Of a stretch of 64,000 nt of DNA, positions 39,208 to 62,874 are shown piece after piece (the first letter of the stretch is position 1; each line of letters opens with the position of its first letter). A program made the position numbers and the translations under genes. This DNA comes from Treponema sp. UBA4873 (GTDB lineage Bacteria; Spirochaetota; Spirochaetia; Treponematales; Treponemataceae), in NCBI GenBank assembly GCA_002399405.1, contig DHDP01000013.1, forward strand, positions 150,784 to 214,783, in the 5' to 3' direction. The notes beneath the pieces were generated by a model that was not told the DNA's origin, searched no databases, and saw only the letters and a list, made by a program, of their open reading frames with translations.

Positions 39208-39272
39208 ACCTATTTGTTTAGTAGGTTTTTATATAGTGAGGATATACTACTAAACCGGTAGGTAATTGTCAA
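39208..39272 (-). promoter_or_regulatory. promoter with two ACCTA-N9-TAGGT-type palindromes upstream of the SBP gene
   Basis: The minus strand reads TTGACA (39272-39267), 17 nt spacer, TAGTAT. Site 1 (39245-39263, one mismatch) lies in the spacer and site 2 (39208-39226, perfect) lies downstream. Confidence 0.55.
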
Positions 39273-39303: not shown

Positions 39304-39975
39304 TTACCGGCGTTCTTCGCTGTTTTCTGTCCGAATTTTTACGTCCCGTATGTAGTTGTATATGGTGTATTTTGAAACACCAAGCTCAGCAGCGACAATA
39401 TCGACTGCCCCCTTTATGTCGAAAATCCCCTGTTCCTGAAGCCGCTGAATAATACTTTTATTTTTTTCAATCGGAGCAATACCGGTAGCTTCGCTCGTTT
39501 CTTTCAGCACTTTCAGAAAGGCGGCGTGGACAAGATTTTCCACTTTGTCGGGATAACTTTCTCCAGCAGATTTATCTTCCGCCCCCCGTTCAGGAGTCAT
39601 GAGTATTTTCATAAACTGATTAAGCGGAGCACTTATATCAAAGCGTATACGGATGCAGCCGATAAGTTCTCCGCCGTCGTTTCTTATAATTATTAATACG
39701 GAGCGGAACTGTTTTCCTGAAGTACTGCCTGATATATACGGGCCTATGCAGTTTTCCGGCGTATGTTCCGCTTTTTTCACCAGTTCAATTTCGGAACCGG
39801 TCAGAAGCGGTTCGTCCTGACGCGCTGAATCAGCAGAGCTGTCTTCATATACGAGAGCCTGCGTTCCGCCGTCGAGAGAGTAAATACGTACGTCGCAGCA
39901 GCTGCCGAATATTCTGCTTATCCCGTCTGCTGCGGCCGTATACGATTCTAATTTTTTCCTGTTTTCTTCAGTCAT
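39304..39975 (-). CDS. YheO-like transcriptional regulator (PAS-like N-domain plus C-terminal HTH)
   Basis: 223 aa. C-terminal AVDIVAAELGVSKYTIYNYIRDV HTH. The N-terminal sensor-like domain has the YheO pattern (ISRIFGSCCDVRIYSLD..). Confidence 0.6.
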   Translation of the reverse strand: MTEENRKKLESYTAAADGISRIFGSCCDVRIYSLDGGTQALVYEDSSADSARQDEPLLTGSEIELVKKAEHTPENCIGPYISGSTSGKQFRSVLIIIRNDGGELIGCIRIRFDISAPLNQFMKILMTPERGAEDKSAGESYPDKVENLVHAAFLKVLKETSEATGIAPIEKNKSIIQRLQEQGIFDIKGAVDIVAAELGVSKYTIYNYIRDVKIRTENSEERR

Positions 39976-46138: not shown

Positions 46139-46370
46139 AGTTTATCTCCCATTAAAAATAAGACTCAAAAAAAAGTCCCGACACCGCTTCCAATTGCAGT
46201 ATCAGGACCTCCGGTTATCCAGTCAGTTCCCCGGGAAACGCTTCCCGTACAGTTACGCAGAACACGCTGAGTAAATCCTCATGACTTAATCAGCGGTCCC
46301 TTGTACTCCTTATTTACCTACTTTTATAATAGGTTTTTAGTATATTATAATTGTTTCACCCATTTGTCAA
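46139..46370 (-). promoter_or_regulatory. promoter plus structured 5' leader with intrinsic terminator (leader copy A) upstream of cysK; unclassified riboswitch/attenuator candidate
   Basis: TTGACA (46370-46365), 17 nt spacer, TAATAT (46347-46342). ACCTA-N9-TAGGT at 46316-46334. The conserved core is GGAACTGACTGGATAACCGGAGGTCC (reverse complement of 46205-46230). A 13-bp stem (46175-46187 with 46196-46208) is followed by U8 (46167-46174), about 30 nt before the ATG. Confidence 0.7.
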
Positions 46371-46417
46371 GTATTTTAGTAGGCAATAAAGGGAATGTTT
46401 CACAAATTCAAACTTAT

Positions 46418-50386: not shown

Positions 50387-50627
50387 ATTGATGCCTCCTT
50401 GAATATGAAAATGAAGTGAAAATAAAAAAAAGGTTCCGACACCGCTTTTTAAATTGCGGTATCGGAACCTCCGGTTATCCAGTCAGTTCCTCGGGAAACA
50501 CATCCCGTAATACTACCCGGGACTGCTGAGTAAATCCTGCCGGTTCAATCAGCCGTCCCGTGTTCCTTATTTACCTAGTTTTACAATAGGTTTTGAGCAT
50601 AATATAATCGATTCAGCTGTTTGTCAA
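50387..50627 (-). promoter_or_regulatory. promoter plus structured 5' leader with intrinsic terminator (leader copy B)
   Basis: TTGACA (50627-50622), 17 nt spacer, TATTAT (50604-50599). ACCTA-N9-TAGGT at 50573-50591. The core (reverse complement of 50464-50490) is identical to copy A except for the last bases. A 14-bp stem (50432-50445 with 50456-50469) is followed by U8 (50424-50431). Confidence 0.7.
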
Positions 50628-50675
50628 GTATTTTAGTGGGATTTGGAGAATTATACGAAAATAATATTATTATTT

Positions 50676-51941: not shown

Positions 51942-52643
51942 TTACAGTATACAGCGGTAACCCATGCCGTACACGGTTTCAATATATTTCGGTTCTTTCG
52001 GACTGTCCGAAAGTTTTTTCCGCAGGTTTTTAATATGCAGATCTATAGACCTGTCGGAACTGCCCGAATCGTCGTTTCCGATATGCGCAGTGATTTCATC
52101 GCGCGTAAAAATCTTTCCGGGTCTCGATACGAGCAGCACGAGAATCCGGTATTCGTTTCCGGTAAGCAGCACGGGCTCGCCGGAGCGCAGCACCGTCCGC
52201 TTTTCGCAGTCGATCACAAGGTCCGAAAATGAAACGGTTCCCGCCGTTTCCGGCTGCGCGCTCCGCCTGAGGATTGCGCCTATCCGCGCCGTCAGTTCGC
52301 GCGGACTGAACGGCTTCGTTACGTAGTCGTCCGCCCCCATATTCAGTCCGTGGATAATGCTCTGCTCGTCGGTTTTCGCGGTAATCATGATTACAGGAAC
52401 GTTTTTACGGCATCCGCTGTAAAAACCGTCCCTGATCCGGCTGCACAGCAATTCTCCCGGGATGTCAGGCAGCATGAGGTCAAGCAGCACGAATGAAATC
52501 TGCTCGCTGTCCAGAATGTTCTGGGCCCCGCTTCCGCTCTGAGCGCACAAAACCCGGTAACCGGCGTGTTCAAGATATGCGCGGAGCGTTTCAAGAATTT
52601 TCGGTTCGTCGTCGACGGCCAGAATTGTCTGTTTGTCGTTCAT
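51942..52643 (-). CDS. OmpR-family response regulator
   Basis: Receiver ILAVDDEPKI..VLLDLMLPD, winged-helix C-terminus (YIETVYGMGYR). Start at ATG 52643; the longer ORF to 52772 adds a non-homologous hydrophobic extension. Confidence 0.88.
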   Translation of the reverse strand: MNDKQTILAVDDEPKILETLRAYLEHAGYRVLCAQSGSGAQNILDSEQISFVLLDLMLPDIPGELLCSRIRDGFYSGCRKNVPVIMITAKTDEQSIIHGLNMGADDYVTKPFSPRELTARIGAILRRSAQPETAGTVSFSDLVIDCEKRTVLRSGEPVLLTGNEYRILVLLVSRPGKIFTRDEITAHIGNDDSGSSDRSIDLHIKNLRKKLSDSPKEPKYIETVYGMGYRCIL

Positions 52644-52695
52644 GTATCCCCCGCAAAAAATCAAACGAAGCCGATGATTGCACGCGAAGCCACAA

Positions 52696-54603
52696 TCAAT
52701 AGCCTCCCGAGCCGCCGCCTGCACAGCAGCTGCCGCTGCTGCCAGTATTATAATAATCGTCGGGATATACAAGTGTTTCGAACGACGATGCCTCCTTTTT
52801 TACCGCCGCCGTGTCTATTTTTGATATATCGTCGACAGTTTTGACGTATCCGAAGAAGATACTGTCTCCTGTCGAGAATCCGAAACTTTCGCGGGGCATC
52901 ACGAACAGACTGTTCTCGGACTGCTTTTCAAGCGGCACTATCGTCGTATACGCGGGAACTCTGAGTTCCGCGCTGCCGTCGTCGTCCGATTTGTTGCTGA
53001 TAATCCACTGCGCAGGGATATCCTTCTGAAGCACTACGACGGCGGGCGAAAATCCTTCGTCGGTGAGCGTTATGCGTACTGTCTGGATATTCTGTCCTTC
53101 GTACGTATCCGGCCGGGCAACGGCAATTTCGTCCACCGGAATCGTGTAGCCGGAAGGCTTCGGCCCCTGCTGGTCGGGTTCGGAGGCTGCGGCGTCGAGC
53201 GAGGCCTGGTCGGCTACGACTTTTATGGAACTCCTTATCATGCCCATCCAGCAGCTGTAGCGGAACGTGCCCGTTTTGTCGGGGGTGAACGTAATTGTAT
53301 TTTCGCCCGTTTTAAATTGATATTGGATGTTGTATTCCGGAATAATCATCCTGTTGTTGCATCCGTTGATGCTTCCGGGAGGCGCGTTGATTGTCCATTT
53401 TACGGGAACGCCCTGCCTGACGGTAATCGACGGATATCTGCCGGAAGCGAGAGTCGAGCTCACGGTCTGCACTCCGTTTTCCGTTTTTGCGGCGGAGCTG
53501 CCGGATGCTGGTTTTCCCGTACTCTGTGCGGCCGATACGGCGCTGGCGGGAAGAAATCTGTCGAGCGACAGGCCCGAAAGTACCCAGCCCTGAGAAAACA
53601 TGGTGATTCCCATAACAGTCACGATGCACGCCCCTACGGTCATGACGCGGTGCGTGAACTTTTTGCTCAGCACAGTGCTCAGCACGCCGAGTCCGAACAT
53701 GAGCGGAACTGTTCCAAGCGCAAACAGCAGCATAGCCGCAGCTCCGCGGAGTGCGCTGCCGGAGGCAAGCGCATACAGCTGCATCGCCTGCAGCGGTCCG
53801 CACGGCATAAGTCCGTTGAGCAGCCCTATAACAAAAGGATTCGTGTTCGTACCTTTTATGCGGTTCAGTTTCGAACCGAGACGGGCCGGCATATGCGGCA
53901 CGATATACCGTAAAAACGGAAACAGGCCGAGCATGTTTATTCCCATGATGACCATGAAAACTCCGGCAGCAAGCTGCACCGCCCCGCGCGCTTTGCCGGA
54001 GAACGAAAACACCGAGCCGATGCCGCCCGCAATGCCGCCTGTTATCGTATAGGAAACAACCCGGCCTCCGTTGTACAGCAGACTCGGAAAGAGAGAGCTT
54101 TTTACTCCGGCCGGACTGCCGTTCCGCGCCAGTGTCTGGGAAAGATTGATTCCCCCGCACATCGCAATACAGTGAACGGAGGTGATGAGCCCTATGACGA
54201 ACATCATGCCGAGTCCCATCCCCGCCTCCGCCGTCGGGAATGCGCTGAAAATCGACGCACCGTAACGGTCGAACAGCAGCGCCGCCGTGACGATGACTGC
54301 AAGCAGACCGAAAGCCCGTGCCCAGACAGGAGTCCGGGGCTGAGTCTGAATCACGTCGTCGTTTCCGGAAATACCGTAGCCGAGCTCTTCGACGATTTTC
54401 CTGATGTCGGACGACGAAACGATCGCGGTGTCGTAGACGACCTTAGCCGTACCTGCGCGGTAACTGACGATAACTGATTTGACACCGTCTGTCGACGCCA
54501 GTTTCTGCTCGATTCTGTTCTGGCAGGCGATGCACGACATACCGGTTATACGGAAAAACTCCGTTTTCACCGTGGATTCCTGAGATTGTTCACTGTGTTC
54601 CAT
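52696..54603 (-). CDS. multidomain membrane protein: N-terminal HMA metal-binding domain, DsbD_2/TauE-like polytopic domain, two cupredoxin-like domains and a Cys-Cys/Gly-rich tail
   Basis: GMSCIACQNRIE (HMA CxxC). Membrane core with SVHCIAMCGG and LMPCGPLQ. YPSITVRQGVPVKWTINAPPGSINGCNNRMIIP..FRYSCWMGM (cupredoxin-like). C-terminus SSGSCCAGGGSGGY. Confidence 0.65.
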   Translation of the reverse strand: MEHSEQSQESTVKTEFFRITGMSCIACQNRIEQKLASTDGVKSVIVSYRAGTAKVVYDTAIVSSSDIRKIVEELGYGISGNDDVIQTQPRTPVWARAFGLLAVIVTAALLFDRYGASIFSAFPTAEAGMGLGMMFVIGLITSVHCIAMCGGINLSQTLARNGSPAGVKSSLFPSLLYNGGRVVSYTITGGIAGGIGSVFSFSGKARGAVQLAAGVFMVIMGINMLGLFPFLRYIVPHMPARLGSKLNRIKGTNTNPFVIGLLNGLMPCGPLQAMQLYALASGSALRGAAAMLLFALGTVPLMFGLGVLSTVLSKKFTHRVMTVGACIVTVMGITMFSQGWVLSGLSLDRFLPASAVSAAQSTGKPASGSSAAKTENGVQTVSSTLASGRYPSITVRQGVPVKWTINAPPGSINGCNNRMIIPEYNIQYQFKTGENTITFTPDKTGTFRYSCWMGMIRSSIKVVADQASLDAAASEPDQQGPKPSGYTIPVDEIAVARPDTYEGQNIQTVRITLTDEGFSPAVVVLQKDIPAQWIISNKSDDDGSAELRVPAYTTIVPLEKQSENSLFVMPRESFGFSTGDSIFFGYVKTVDDISKIDTAAVKKEASSFETLVYPDDYYNTGSSGSCCAGGGSGGY

Positions 54604-60156: not shown

Positions 60157-60350
60157 ATATTTTCATCCGCCTCCTGATCGATCTCACCGCCGCATATGCC
60201 GCACAAATAAAAAAGGTTCCGGCACTGGTATATTTCTATCTCAGTGCCGGAACCTCCGGTTGTCCAGTCAGTTCCTTTCTAAAAATTATAAACTATTACC
60301 TACTATTCCAATATGTTTTTGATAATAATGCGGGTGCCGGTATTTGTCAA
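60157..60350 (-). promoter_or_regulatory. promoter plus short 5' leader with intrinsic terminator (leader copy C, minimal version)
   Basis: TTGACA (60350-60345), 17 nt spacer, TATTAT (60327-60322). Degenerate palindrome at 60298-60316. The core is GGAACTGACTGGACAACCGGAGGTTCC (reverse complement of 60249-60275). A 13-bp stem (60215-60227 with 60242-60254) is followed by U6 (60209-60214). Confidence 0.7.
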
Positions 60351-61482: not shown

Positions 61483-61614
61483 AATTACCTGCCTTTACGA
61501 TGTGTATTGGTAAAATTATACCGGCCGCACAAATCAACAGCAAATACTTTTTTTTATGTATAAGCCATAAATTTTAGTTATGACACTGACATATCTTCTA
61601 AAAAATGATACATT

Positions 61615-61633
61615 TCCTATTTACTCGATAGGT
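61615..61633. promoter_or_regulatory. TCCTA-N9-TAGGTAA palindrome just downstream of a candidate promoter for the trans-sulfuration gene
   Basis: CTGACA, 17 nt spacer, TACATT, followed immediately by TCCTATTTACTCGATAGGTAA. Same motif family as at leaders A, B, C and 39.2 kb. Confidence 0.5.
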
Positions 61634-61665: not shown

Positions 61666-62874
61666 ATGATACACGATTTTTCAAAAAACGGATTTGCAAC
61701 GCGTGCAGTCCATGCAGGAGAAGCGCCGGATCCGGCGACAGGAGCTTCCGCCCCGAATCTCGTTATGTCGACGACATACGTCACTACGGCCGACGCGTCG
61801 TTCTCTGCCGAGGATTTCGGAGAAAACACTCCCTTTATTTACACACGGTGGGGCAATCCGACAATAGCGCAGCTTGAGCGGAAACTTGCTTCACTGGAAA
61901 ACGCGGAGGCCGCCGTTGCGTTTGCAAGCGGAATGGCCGCAAGCACCGGCCTGCTGCTCCAGTTTTTGAAACCGGGTGATCATCTCGTCGTCTCGGACGT
62001 GAGTTACGCAGGCGTGGCGGAATTCACAAAGGATTATCTGCCGTCGCACGGAATAGAAGTGACGAAAGTCGATTTGTCAGCCCCCGCGAACCTGAAAGCT
62101 GCAATACGGCCGAACACGCGTTTCGTCTATGCGGAAACGCCGGCGAATCCCATACTCAAACTCACTGATATTTCCGCAGCGGCCGCGATAACGCACGAAG
62201 CCGGCGCTAAACTGATAGTCGACTCCACGTTTGCAACGCCGGTCGCCACCCGTCCGCTCGAACTCGGTGCCGATTTTGTCGTTCATTCGCTTACAAAATA
62301 CATGAGCGGGCACGGAGACGCGATCGGCGGCGCGGTGCTCGGAAAAGCGGCAGACCTTGCGGAACTGAAAAAAGGCGCGAGCATTCATCTGGGCGGTATT
62401 ATCAGTCCGTTCAACGCATGGCTCATCCTGCGCGGAATTTCAACGCTGCCCGTCAGAATGCGCGCGCATGAGGAAGGCGCTTTTGCCGTGGCCCGTGCGC
62501 TCGAATCGAATCCGAACGTAAAGCGTGTCATTTACCCCGGACTCGATTCGCATCCGCAGGCGGAACTTGCGCACCGTCAGATGAAAAATTTTTCCGGCAT
62601 GATAAGTTTTCAGGTAAAAGGCGACGGCGGCGCCGCCGCCAGGCGTTTTTCGGACAGACTCGAAATAATCCACTATGCGGTTTCGCTCGGCCATCAGCGC
62701 AGCCTTATCTTTTATCTTGCGACAAACGACATGCTGCGGACCTCTTTTCAGATGACGGCAAAACAGGAAGCCGTGTACCGCAGCTTTGCGGGAGACGGAA
62801 TATTCCGGCTGTCTGTCGGACTAGAAGACCCTGCCGACATTATTGCAGATCTTGACAGAGCGCTGGAAGCCTGA
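61666..62874 (+). CDS. Cys/Met-metabolism PLP-dependent enzyme (methionine gamma-lyase / O-acetylhomoserine sulfhydrylase / cystathionine gamma-synthase family)
   Basis: 402 aa. TRAVHAG, YTRWGNPT, SGMAA, VVHSLTKYMSGHGD (PLP Lys). Confidence 0.85.
   Translation: MIHDFSKNGFATRAVHAGEAPDPATGASAPNLVMSTTYVTTADASFSAEDFGENTPFIYTRWGNPTIAQLERKLASLENAEAAVAFASGMAASTGLLLQFLKPGDHLVVSDVSYAGVAEFTKDYLPSHGIEVTKVDLSAPANLKAAIRPNTRFVYAETPANPILKLTDISAAAAITHEAGAKLIVDSTFATPVATRPLELGADFVVHSLTKYMSGHGDAIGGAVLGKAADLAELKKGASIHLGGIISPFNAWLILRGISTLPVRMRAHEEGAFAVARALESNPNVKRVIYPGLDSHPQAELAHRQMKNFSGMISFQVKGDGGAAARRFSDRLEIIHYAVSLGHQRSLIFYLATNDMLRTSFQMTAKQEAVYRSFAGDGIFRLSVGLEDPADIIADLDRALEA

Follow-up and report, generated by a model that had tools for sequence, protein, structure and literature searches.

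What reads the palindrome that recurs at the sulfur-gene promoters of Treponema sp. UBA4873? Copies of ACCTA-N9-TAGGT stand at six sites in a 64,000-nucleotide stretch of this genome (GenBank assembly GCA_002399405.1, contig DHDP01000013.1, positions 150,784 to 214,783), here referred to as the window. An initial annotation, made from the letters of the window alone, proposed that the palindrome is the operator of an undescribed regulon and that the adjacent YheO-like regulator may bind it. We followed up this proposal in the whole assembly (4.02 Mb in 23 contigs, labeled G000, with the window at C10:150784-214783) and in its relatives. Our analysis suggests a different reader. With a probability that we place at roughly two in three, the palindrome, in the longer form ACCTAyT-N5-ArTAGGT, is the operator of a dimeric CymR/IscR-type Rrf2 repressor, and its likely reader is the Rrf2 protein encoded next to cysK at C12:400025-400453. 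The identity of the binding protein, the sign of the regulation, and the effector are inferred.

The palindrome exceeds chance expectation and marks sulfur-gene promoters

All six sites were recovered in the window. Three copies are perfect (39208-39226, referred to as O1; 46316-46334, at leader A; and 50573-50591, at leader B), two carry one mismatch (60298-60316, ACCTA..TATGT, at leader C; and 61615-61633, TCCTA..TAGGT), and one carries two (39245-39263, TACTA..TAGGT, referred to as O2). Matches with at most one mismatch number 5 in the window against 0.39 expected, and none of 100 dinucleotide-preserving shuffles of the window reached 5. Across the genome, the perfect palindrome occurs six times at a spacing of 9 and zero to one time at each other spacing in the range from 5 to 13; with up to one mismatch, there are 20 copies at spacing 9 versus 4 to 11 at the other spacings. 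Alignment of the copies extends the unit to ACCTAyT-N5-ArTAGGT with A/T-rich flanks. A symmetrized position weight matrix returned 22 genomic sites above 18 bits, on sulfur-gene promoters, versus 0 in a first-order Markov-simulated genome. Sixteen of these 22 sites had served as seeds of the same matrix, so the spacing comparison is the independent statistic. The genome scan called for by the initial annotation has thereby been carried out, and the frequencies in the window and genome-wide exclude a chance origin of the motif.

The association with sulfur and sulfur-amino-acid genes, first noted for the window, holds beyond it, with about 20 sites genome-wide. Operators are found on the sigma-70-type promoters of about 15 sulfur operons, whose genes include cysK, a cysK-like PALP enzyme gene, three SBP_bac_3 ABC systems, metQ (two copies), metN, metY, a methionine gamma-lyase family gene, sufC, nitrogenase-like D/K, a nifH-like gene, and a radical SAM gene. 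Beyond the window, copies of the motif stand ahead of metQ and metN, an SBP_bac_3-metQ-metN operon, metY, cysK, sufC (22.8 bits), and the nifH-like/radical SAM pair.

Two of these loci extend the picture of the contig that carries the window. Ahead of the SBP_bac_3-metQ-metN operon, two operator copies of 24.4 and 27.0 bits lie 37 bp apart (C10:215768-215823), and since these copies stand about 1 kb beyond the window end, the sulfur island extends past the window. The nifH-like and radical SAM (NifB-like) genes are divergently oriented, and each has its own operator copy (C10:233365-233530). Their products are probably the reductase and maturase partners of the nitrogenase-like D/K proteins encoded in the window, and the pair is also operator controlled in the relative G006 (locus L045).

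Operator positions favor a DNA-binding repressor over an RNA hairpin

Two layouts relate the operators to their promoters. In the first, the operator begins 5 to 7 nt after the -10 box of a TTGACA-17-TATAAT-like promoter (leaders A, B, and C, cysK, and the nifH-like gene). In the second, it includes the -35 hexamer (ACCTATTGACAnAGTAGGT), as at metQ, metN, and metY, or extends over the spacer and the -10 box, as O2 does. Both layouts are classical repressor positions. Promoter scans and direct reading of the sequence agree with the earlier placement of the sites at or just downstream of predicted promoters.

The perfect operator at leader A (30.8 bits) begins 7 nt after the -10 box of the minus-strand promoter TTGACA-17-TAATAT (46342-46370), ahead of an operon that comprises the cysK-like PALP gene, Ssu-type ABC genes, and, in last place, the YheO-like gene. 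The perfect operator at leader B (28.2 bits) likewise begins 7 nt after the -10 box of its promoter (TTGACA-17-TATTAT, 50599-50627, minus strand), which serves an SBP_bac_3 ABC/M20 peptidase operon. At leader C, the operator reads ACATA..TAGGT on the transcribed strand (28.0 bits) and begins 5 nt after the -10 box of TTGACA-17-TATTAT (60322-60350, minus strand); the operon behind it contains Fe-ADH, aminotransferase, and nitrogenase-like D/K genes. O1 and O2 share the minus-strand promoter TTGACA-17-TAGTAT (39244-39272) of an SBP_bac_3/permease/ATPase/GNAT/Xi-GST operon. The perfect copy O1 (30.8 bits) occupies the stretch 18 to 36 nt past the -10 box, 25 nt ahead of the start codon. O2 (22.6 bits by the matrix) falls within the -35/-10 spacer with an overlap into the -10 box, and it is not transcribed. 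The sixth operator, at 61615-61633 (25.7 bits), directly follows the extended -10 box of a promoter-like CTGACA-17-TACATT with a TG extension (61586-61614, plus strand). It stands 32 nt before the start codon of gene 61666-62874, which encodes a Cys/Met pyridoxal phosphate enzyme of the methionine gamma-lyase/cystathionine gamma-synthase family.

The window had also been read as showing control in two layers at leaders A, B, and C, with an operator followed by a terminator-bearing leader. This arrangement stands structurally and is plausible: a promoter/terminator scan found the terminator of leader A, a 17-pair stem at 46212-46171, and direct sequence reading located the terminator hairpins and T-runs of leaders B and C.

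Because the palindrome starts at about +1 at six promoters, those of leaders A, B, and C and three others, and would hence be transcribed there, it could instead form a 5'-terminal RNA hairpin of the leaders, acting in transcript stability or as part of a riboregulator. Copy A indeed folds at -6.2 kcal/mol with a z score of -2.6. The predicted folds of the five window copies (-6.2, -3.5, 0, -3.1, and -4.4 kcal/mol) are weak overall, however: three are no better than shuffles, copies B and O1 among them, and copy C reaches 0 kcal/mol. Many copies overlap a -35 or -10 box and are not transcribed; operators that contain the -35 hexamer are frequent both in this genome (metQ, metN, and metY) and in its relatives. 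The sites are also found in both orientations relative to transcription, and a search of the window and leader A against Rfam matched no family. In a set of 82 distinct sites drawn from this genome and the fetched loci, each scoring 20 bits or more, changes in the arms at core pairs 2 to 5 were one-sided in 49 cases and compensatory in 0, a ratio obtained on sites picked by a sequence matrix that itself disfavors double changes. The untranscribed -35 and spacer copies, the lack of compensatory changes, the weak folds, and the absence of an Rfam match all identify the palindrome as a predicted protein-binding DNA operator and not an RNA hairpin, as the initial annotation had favored. We regard the hairpin as very improbable.

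The motif is retained at orthologous sulfur genes in Treponema

The genome belongs to a gut-type Treponema, for which T. socranskii and Treponema sp. Marseille-Q4130 are the closest relatives with a name. Of 24 genomes from the same genus, 8 to 10 are enriched in perfect copies of the 10-base pattern, with 14 in G006 and 19 in G007 versus 2 to 3 for control patterns. The strict pattern WCCTAYT-N5-ARTAGGW is present in 19 of the 25 genomes within the genus and in none of the 16 outside it, with controls near 0. Phylogenetic footprinting, which had been proposed as a check, shows that the motif is kept upstream of orthologous sulfur genes in Treponema relatives. Named Treponema species carry perfect sites upstream of the orthologs of metQ (four genomes), metY (two genomes), and cysK (three sites in two genomes), as well as those of SBP_bac_3 and metQ2-metN. 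In genus-level relatives, such sites lie upstream of nitrogenase-like, nifH-like, radical SAM, PALP, M20, and SBP_bac_3 genes.

The standard layout in these relatives pairs a copy embedded in the -35 region with a second copy 40 to 50 bp downstream. In the genome studied here, the stretch CCTACTAAAATAC (CCCACTAAAATAC at leader B) occurs directly upstream of the -35 hexamer at leader A (46371-46383) and leader B (50628-50640), and the same stretch occupies the same place at the nifH-like promoter (C10:~233410). Some 50 bp separate it from the main operator downstream, and it resembles a lone half-site or an UP-like element. This stretch may be a remnant of the upstream copy in the double-site layout of the relatives.

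The regulators encoded in the window do not track the motif

Position alone makes the YheO-like protein an obvious candidate. Its gene (39304-39975), which encodes PAS_6 and HTH_22 domains, is the last in the leader-A operon, ends about 40 nt from the double site, and specifies one of the two DNA-binding proteins of the island. Across genomes, however, regulator and motif fail to co-occur, and we rejected this candidate. No homolog was detected at an E value of 1e-10 or below in any of the 24 same-genus genomes, including the motif-rich G006 (14 perfect sites) and G007 (19). HTH_22 was likewise missing from seven of the nine further Treponema genomes reached through named loci, T. socranskii among them, and several of these carry the motif on sulfur genes. 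The double site also lies beyond the stop codon of the YheO-like gene and forms part of the next promoter, so the gene shows no autoregulatory arrangement. YheO/DauR-type regulators have the same two domains as this neighboring gene product; the genome distribution of that family does not follow the motif, and no operator of the family could be linked to the site.

The other DNA-binding protein of the island is the OmpR-type response regulator encoded inside a regulated operon, that of leader C (51942-52772). The genus holds no ortholog of it; the best matches are generic paralogs of at most 38% identity, and the motif-rich genome G005 has no match at all at an E value of 1e-30 or below. OmpR-family regulators bind direct repeats, in contrast to the 19-bp two-fold palindrome seen here. 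Since the motif is conserved in genomes that lack orthologs of both proteins, neither can be the cognate factor: reading by the YheO-like protein is highly unlikely, and reading by the OmpR-type regulator is close to negligible. The assignment of the operator to the YheO-like protein was one of guilt by adjacency and is corrected here.

The genome contains a second YheO-like protein with PAS_6 and HTH_22 domains (C6:50486-51127), 48% identical to the one encoded in the window. The two paralogs look recently acquired, as the family hardly occurs elsewhere in the genus.

A cysK-linked Rrf2 protein is the likely reader

Two Rrf2 genes were found in the genome, an IscR/CymR-like gene at C12:400025-400453 (142 amino acids) and a distant HypR-like gene at C12:450717-451103. 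A tblastn search of this genome yielded no further Rrf2 paralog. The IscR/CymR-like protein is the only one of its kind in the genome, and its gene lies outside the window, immediately upstream of cysK. It matches PF02082 with 127.8 bits (C12:400055-400447) and TIGR00738 above the cutoff, and the adjacent cysK (C12:398977-399912) matches the TIGR01139 equivalog with 445 bits against a cutoff of 351. Following the Rrf2 gene are, in order, a promoter (TTGACA-17-TACACT), a 28.8-bit operator, and cysK. A further site precedes the Rrf2 start codon by 20 nt.

This arrangement recurs among 80 orthologous Rrf2 loci from named genomes (L050-L129). Half of these loci (40/80) have cysK directly downstream, and 30 of the 40 adjacent pairs have a site scoring 15 bits or more in the short Rrf2-cysK spacer. 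A site also lies within 100 bp upstream of the Rrf2 start in 30 of the 80 loci. Elsewhere in the same loci, 11 sites in 376 kb amount to a background of 0.029 per kb. Some loci from Clostridia and Endomicrobia (L115, L120, L125, and L128) show the same arrangement of Rrf2 gene, cysK, and site.

Alignment separates the Treponema proteins into three groups, A1 (the type found in this genome), A2, and B. Groups A1 and B share the recognition helix S-x-K-Y-L-E-Q-I and a C-terminal tail ending in Y-x-I, whereas A2 has a different recognition helix (KYIEAI) and no tail. The tail of the protein studied here reads ...PETLDYSI; the last residue is Ile in 67 of its 80 orthologs, and the tail of one group B protein closes with GYMFYI. 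Group B proteins lack cysteines in the sensor loop. Groups A2 and B coexist with the cysK-linked subfamily in some Treponema genomes. The strict motif is present in 16 of 17 genomes with a tail-bearing Rrf2 protein versus 3 of 8 without one (Fisher p = 0.0055, with several assemblies incomplete). A single A1-type Rrf2 protein, no YheO-like gene, and a perfect site at metQ characterize both T. socranskii (G044) and G041; G046 is like them in its regulators but lacks a perfect site.

Several observations weigh against the cysK-linked protein as the reader. The site at its own promoter is a weaker TAGGA-type variant of 19.8 bits. Its NCBIfam equivalog scores fall below the cutoffs, both for CymR (NF047409, 109.3 versus 195) and for IscR (TIGR02010, 129.4 versus 207.55). 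The closest relatives with only an A1-type protein (T. socranskii, G041, G043, and G046) show no genome-wide enrichment of the motif with one mismatch, and in them the motif is limited to metQ and the Rrf2 locus itself, which means that regulon size varies strongly within the genus. Furthermore, the relatives with the largest regulons (G005, G006, G007, and G016) carry group B in an autoregulated operon behind ACCTA-type double sites, and group B may be the dedicated reader of such sites there. Neither group B nor the tail-less A2 was found in the genome studied here, and to credit the cysK-linked protein with the whole regulon is to suppose that the paralogs have a common specificity. Finally, the only Rrf2 protein detected in the motif-rich G015, a genome that is 76% complete, is a tail-less paralog behind a double site.

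The link between group B and the double sites is a close one. In five relatives, double ACCTA sites precede an operon in which an aminotransferase gene is followed, in second place, by the group B gene; in a sixth, the group B gene comes directly after a double site. The upstream divergent gene in two of these loci is nitrogenase-like D/K, as judged by domain scan or by matching size (434 amino acids).

Alternatively, the Rrf2-type operator may be read in this genome by the HypR-like Rrf2 protein or by a regulator of another family that took over after the loss of group B. The missing protein is the very paralog most tightly tied to ACCTA double sites in the relatives, and a second Rrf2 gene does exist in the genome. 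The HypR-like protein, however, is 25 to 39% identical to the three Rrf2 groups over partial alignments only, and its gene lies in a rhodanese/thymidine-kinase context more than about 50 kb from any listed motif site. Against any such substitute, the cysK-linked protein shares its recognition-helix sequence and C-terminal tail with group B, and the motif occurs at its own locus across dozens of genomes. We consider a substitute reader unlikely, and the cysK-linked Rrf2 protein remains our preferred candidate.

The aminotransferase gene associated with group B occupies different settings. In the relatives' loci L038, L039, L040, L043, and L044, this nitrogenase-cluster aminotransferase is co-transcribed with a cysteine-free group B Rrf2 gene, and the loci checked in relatives have it in divergent orientation to the nitrogenase-like D/K genes. 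The genome studied here has the aminotransferase within the D/K operon, and an OmpR/histidine-kinase pair stands at the operon end instead.

The candidate Treponema regulator combines features of CymR and IscR

The CymR box of Bacillus subtilis, which Even and coworkers are said to have defined in 2006, reportedly has the consensus TAAWNCN2ANTWNAN3ATMGGAATTW. We take the core of the Treponema motif, CCTAy-N7-rTAGG, to be the palindromic core of this box. The flanks presumably differ, with (T)TA-CCTA in the Treponema motif versus AATT-CCTA in the CymR box.

Points of likeness concern the protein and its targets. Like CymR, the cysK-linked protein is an Rrf2 winged-helix protein with an Ile-ended tail of the CysK-docking kind. 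Both regulons comprise genes for the uptake of cystine or sulfur compounds, cysK, and genes for the conversion of Met to Cys, and in both the operators lie on promoters. The tail EDLDGYMFYI of Staphylococcus aureus CymR inserts into the active site of CysK (bioRxiv 10.1101/2024.09.19.614015). An Rrf2-cysK pair has been proposed as CymR-CysK in Clostridium acetobutylicum (CAC2236 and CAC2235; PMC3828012). This pair has the same gene order as in Treponema, with a CymR-like motif predicted at cysK and at amino-acid ABC operons; it belongs to another phylum and is also a computational prediction. The clostridial loci L115, L120, L125, and L128 contain a site of this kind within the locus or close to it.

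Other features differ from CymR. The Treponema protein has three cysteines that align with IscR ligands, whereas B. subtilis CymR binds no cluster (PMC9338935), and it scores below the CymR equivalog cutoff. Its gene lies directly upstream of cysK, and its regulon adds metQ/metN, metY, sufC, and a nitrogenase-like sulfur-salvage system. Judged from sequence, the Treponema system appears to agree with CymR in fold, tail, cysK linkage, and regulon content and to depart from it in strict orthology and in the absence of cluster cysteines.

IscR, the [2Fe-2S] Rrf2 regulator of iron-sulfur (Fe-S) cluster biogenesis, represented by the proteins of Escherichia coli and Thermincola potens (PDB 4CIC), provides the best PDB and NCBIfam matches of the Treponema protein. 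The three cysteines align with the IscR ligands C92, C98, and C104 and are present in about 78 of the 80 orthologs; the position of His107 is occupied by Leu. A site on the sufC promoter is a further point in common. The CC-N13-GG geometry of the motif presumably also resembles that of type-2 IscR sites. In contrast to IscR, the Treponema gene is linked to cysK and not to isc or suf, the protein lacks a counterpart of His107 and scores below the IscR equivalog cutoff, and the regulon consists mainly of sulfur amino-acid genes, with the sufC site as the only link to Fe-S assembly.

Our literature search found no description of an Rrf2/CymR-type sulfur regulon in Treponema or other spirochaetes. 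The regulon can accordingly be called undescribed for this genus, as the initial annotation had it, while its content and the regulator-cysK pairing are of the CymR type and in that respect familiar.

A proposed switch for sulfur acquisition

We propose that the Rrf2 repressor would act as a master switch over sulfur acquisition and Cys/Met metabolism in Treponema. By analogy with CymR in Bacillus and Staphylococcus (PMC3828012; PMC9338935), O-acetylserine would be low when cysteine is sufficient, CysK would bind the Ile-ended tail of the repressor, and the complex would occupy the operators. Operators over the -35 box, the -10 box, or +1 would then exclude RNA polymerase. Under sulfur limitation, O-acetylserine would build up and displace the tail from the CysK active site, upon which the repressor would leave and the operons would be transcribed. 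At leaders A, B, and C, the separate antiterminator/terminator leader would serve as a second checkpoint.

The sufC promoter site suggests a possible second, Fe-S-dependent input. More speculatively, the cysK-linked Rrf2 protein, with its orthologs in Treponema, Clostridia, and Endomicrobia, could be a two-input repressor that combines an IscR-type Fe-S site with a CysK-docking tail, an idea that we consider less likely than not. If it holds, a single operator would integrate Fe-S status with O-acetylserine/cysteine status and would place sulfur uptake, Cys/Met synthesis, SUF, and the nitrogenase-like sulfur-salvage enzyme under joint control. It is this Rrf2 subfamily, with both IscR-like and CymR-like sensing features, that could prove new.

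The proposed switch provides a testable sulfur-control map for Treponema of the gut, rumen, and mouth, among which hardly any transcription-factor regulon is known from experiment. About 15 operons would be under one switch, including the nitrogenase-like (Mar-related) system, the Xi-class GST paralogs, and the leader-RNA operons. Sharing this switch would be functional evidence that the genes of the nitrogenase-like, Xi-GST, and leader-RNA operons serve sulfur acquisition.

Additional observations in the genome

The top-scoring site of the genome (31.5 bits) and a weaker upstream copy (C13:147183-147241) precede an open reading frame of about 80 amino acids, an unexpected regulon member. A single membrane helix is predicted in its product, whose tail resembles SHOCT on visual inspection.

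The genome also encodes a CysE-like acetyltransferase, which scores 171.9 bits, under the curated cutoff, and does not end in the C-terminal Ile that elsewhere binds CysK. Upstream of its gene, at C9:~162400-162620, lies an array of imperfect repeats with units of about 20 to 25 nt of the form CAAAC(C/A)AGTACATGTTTGnGG.

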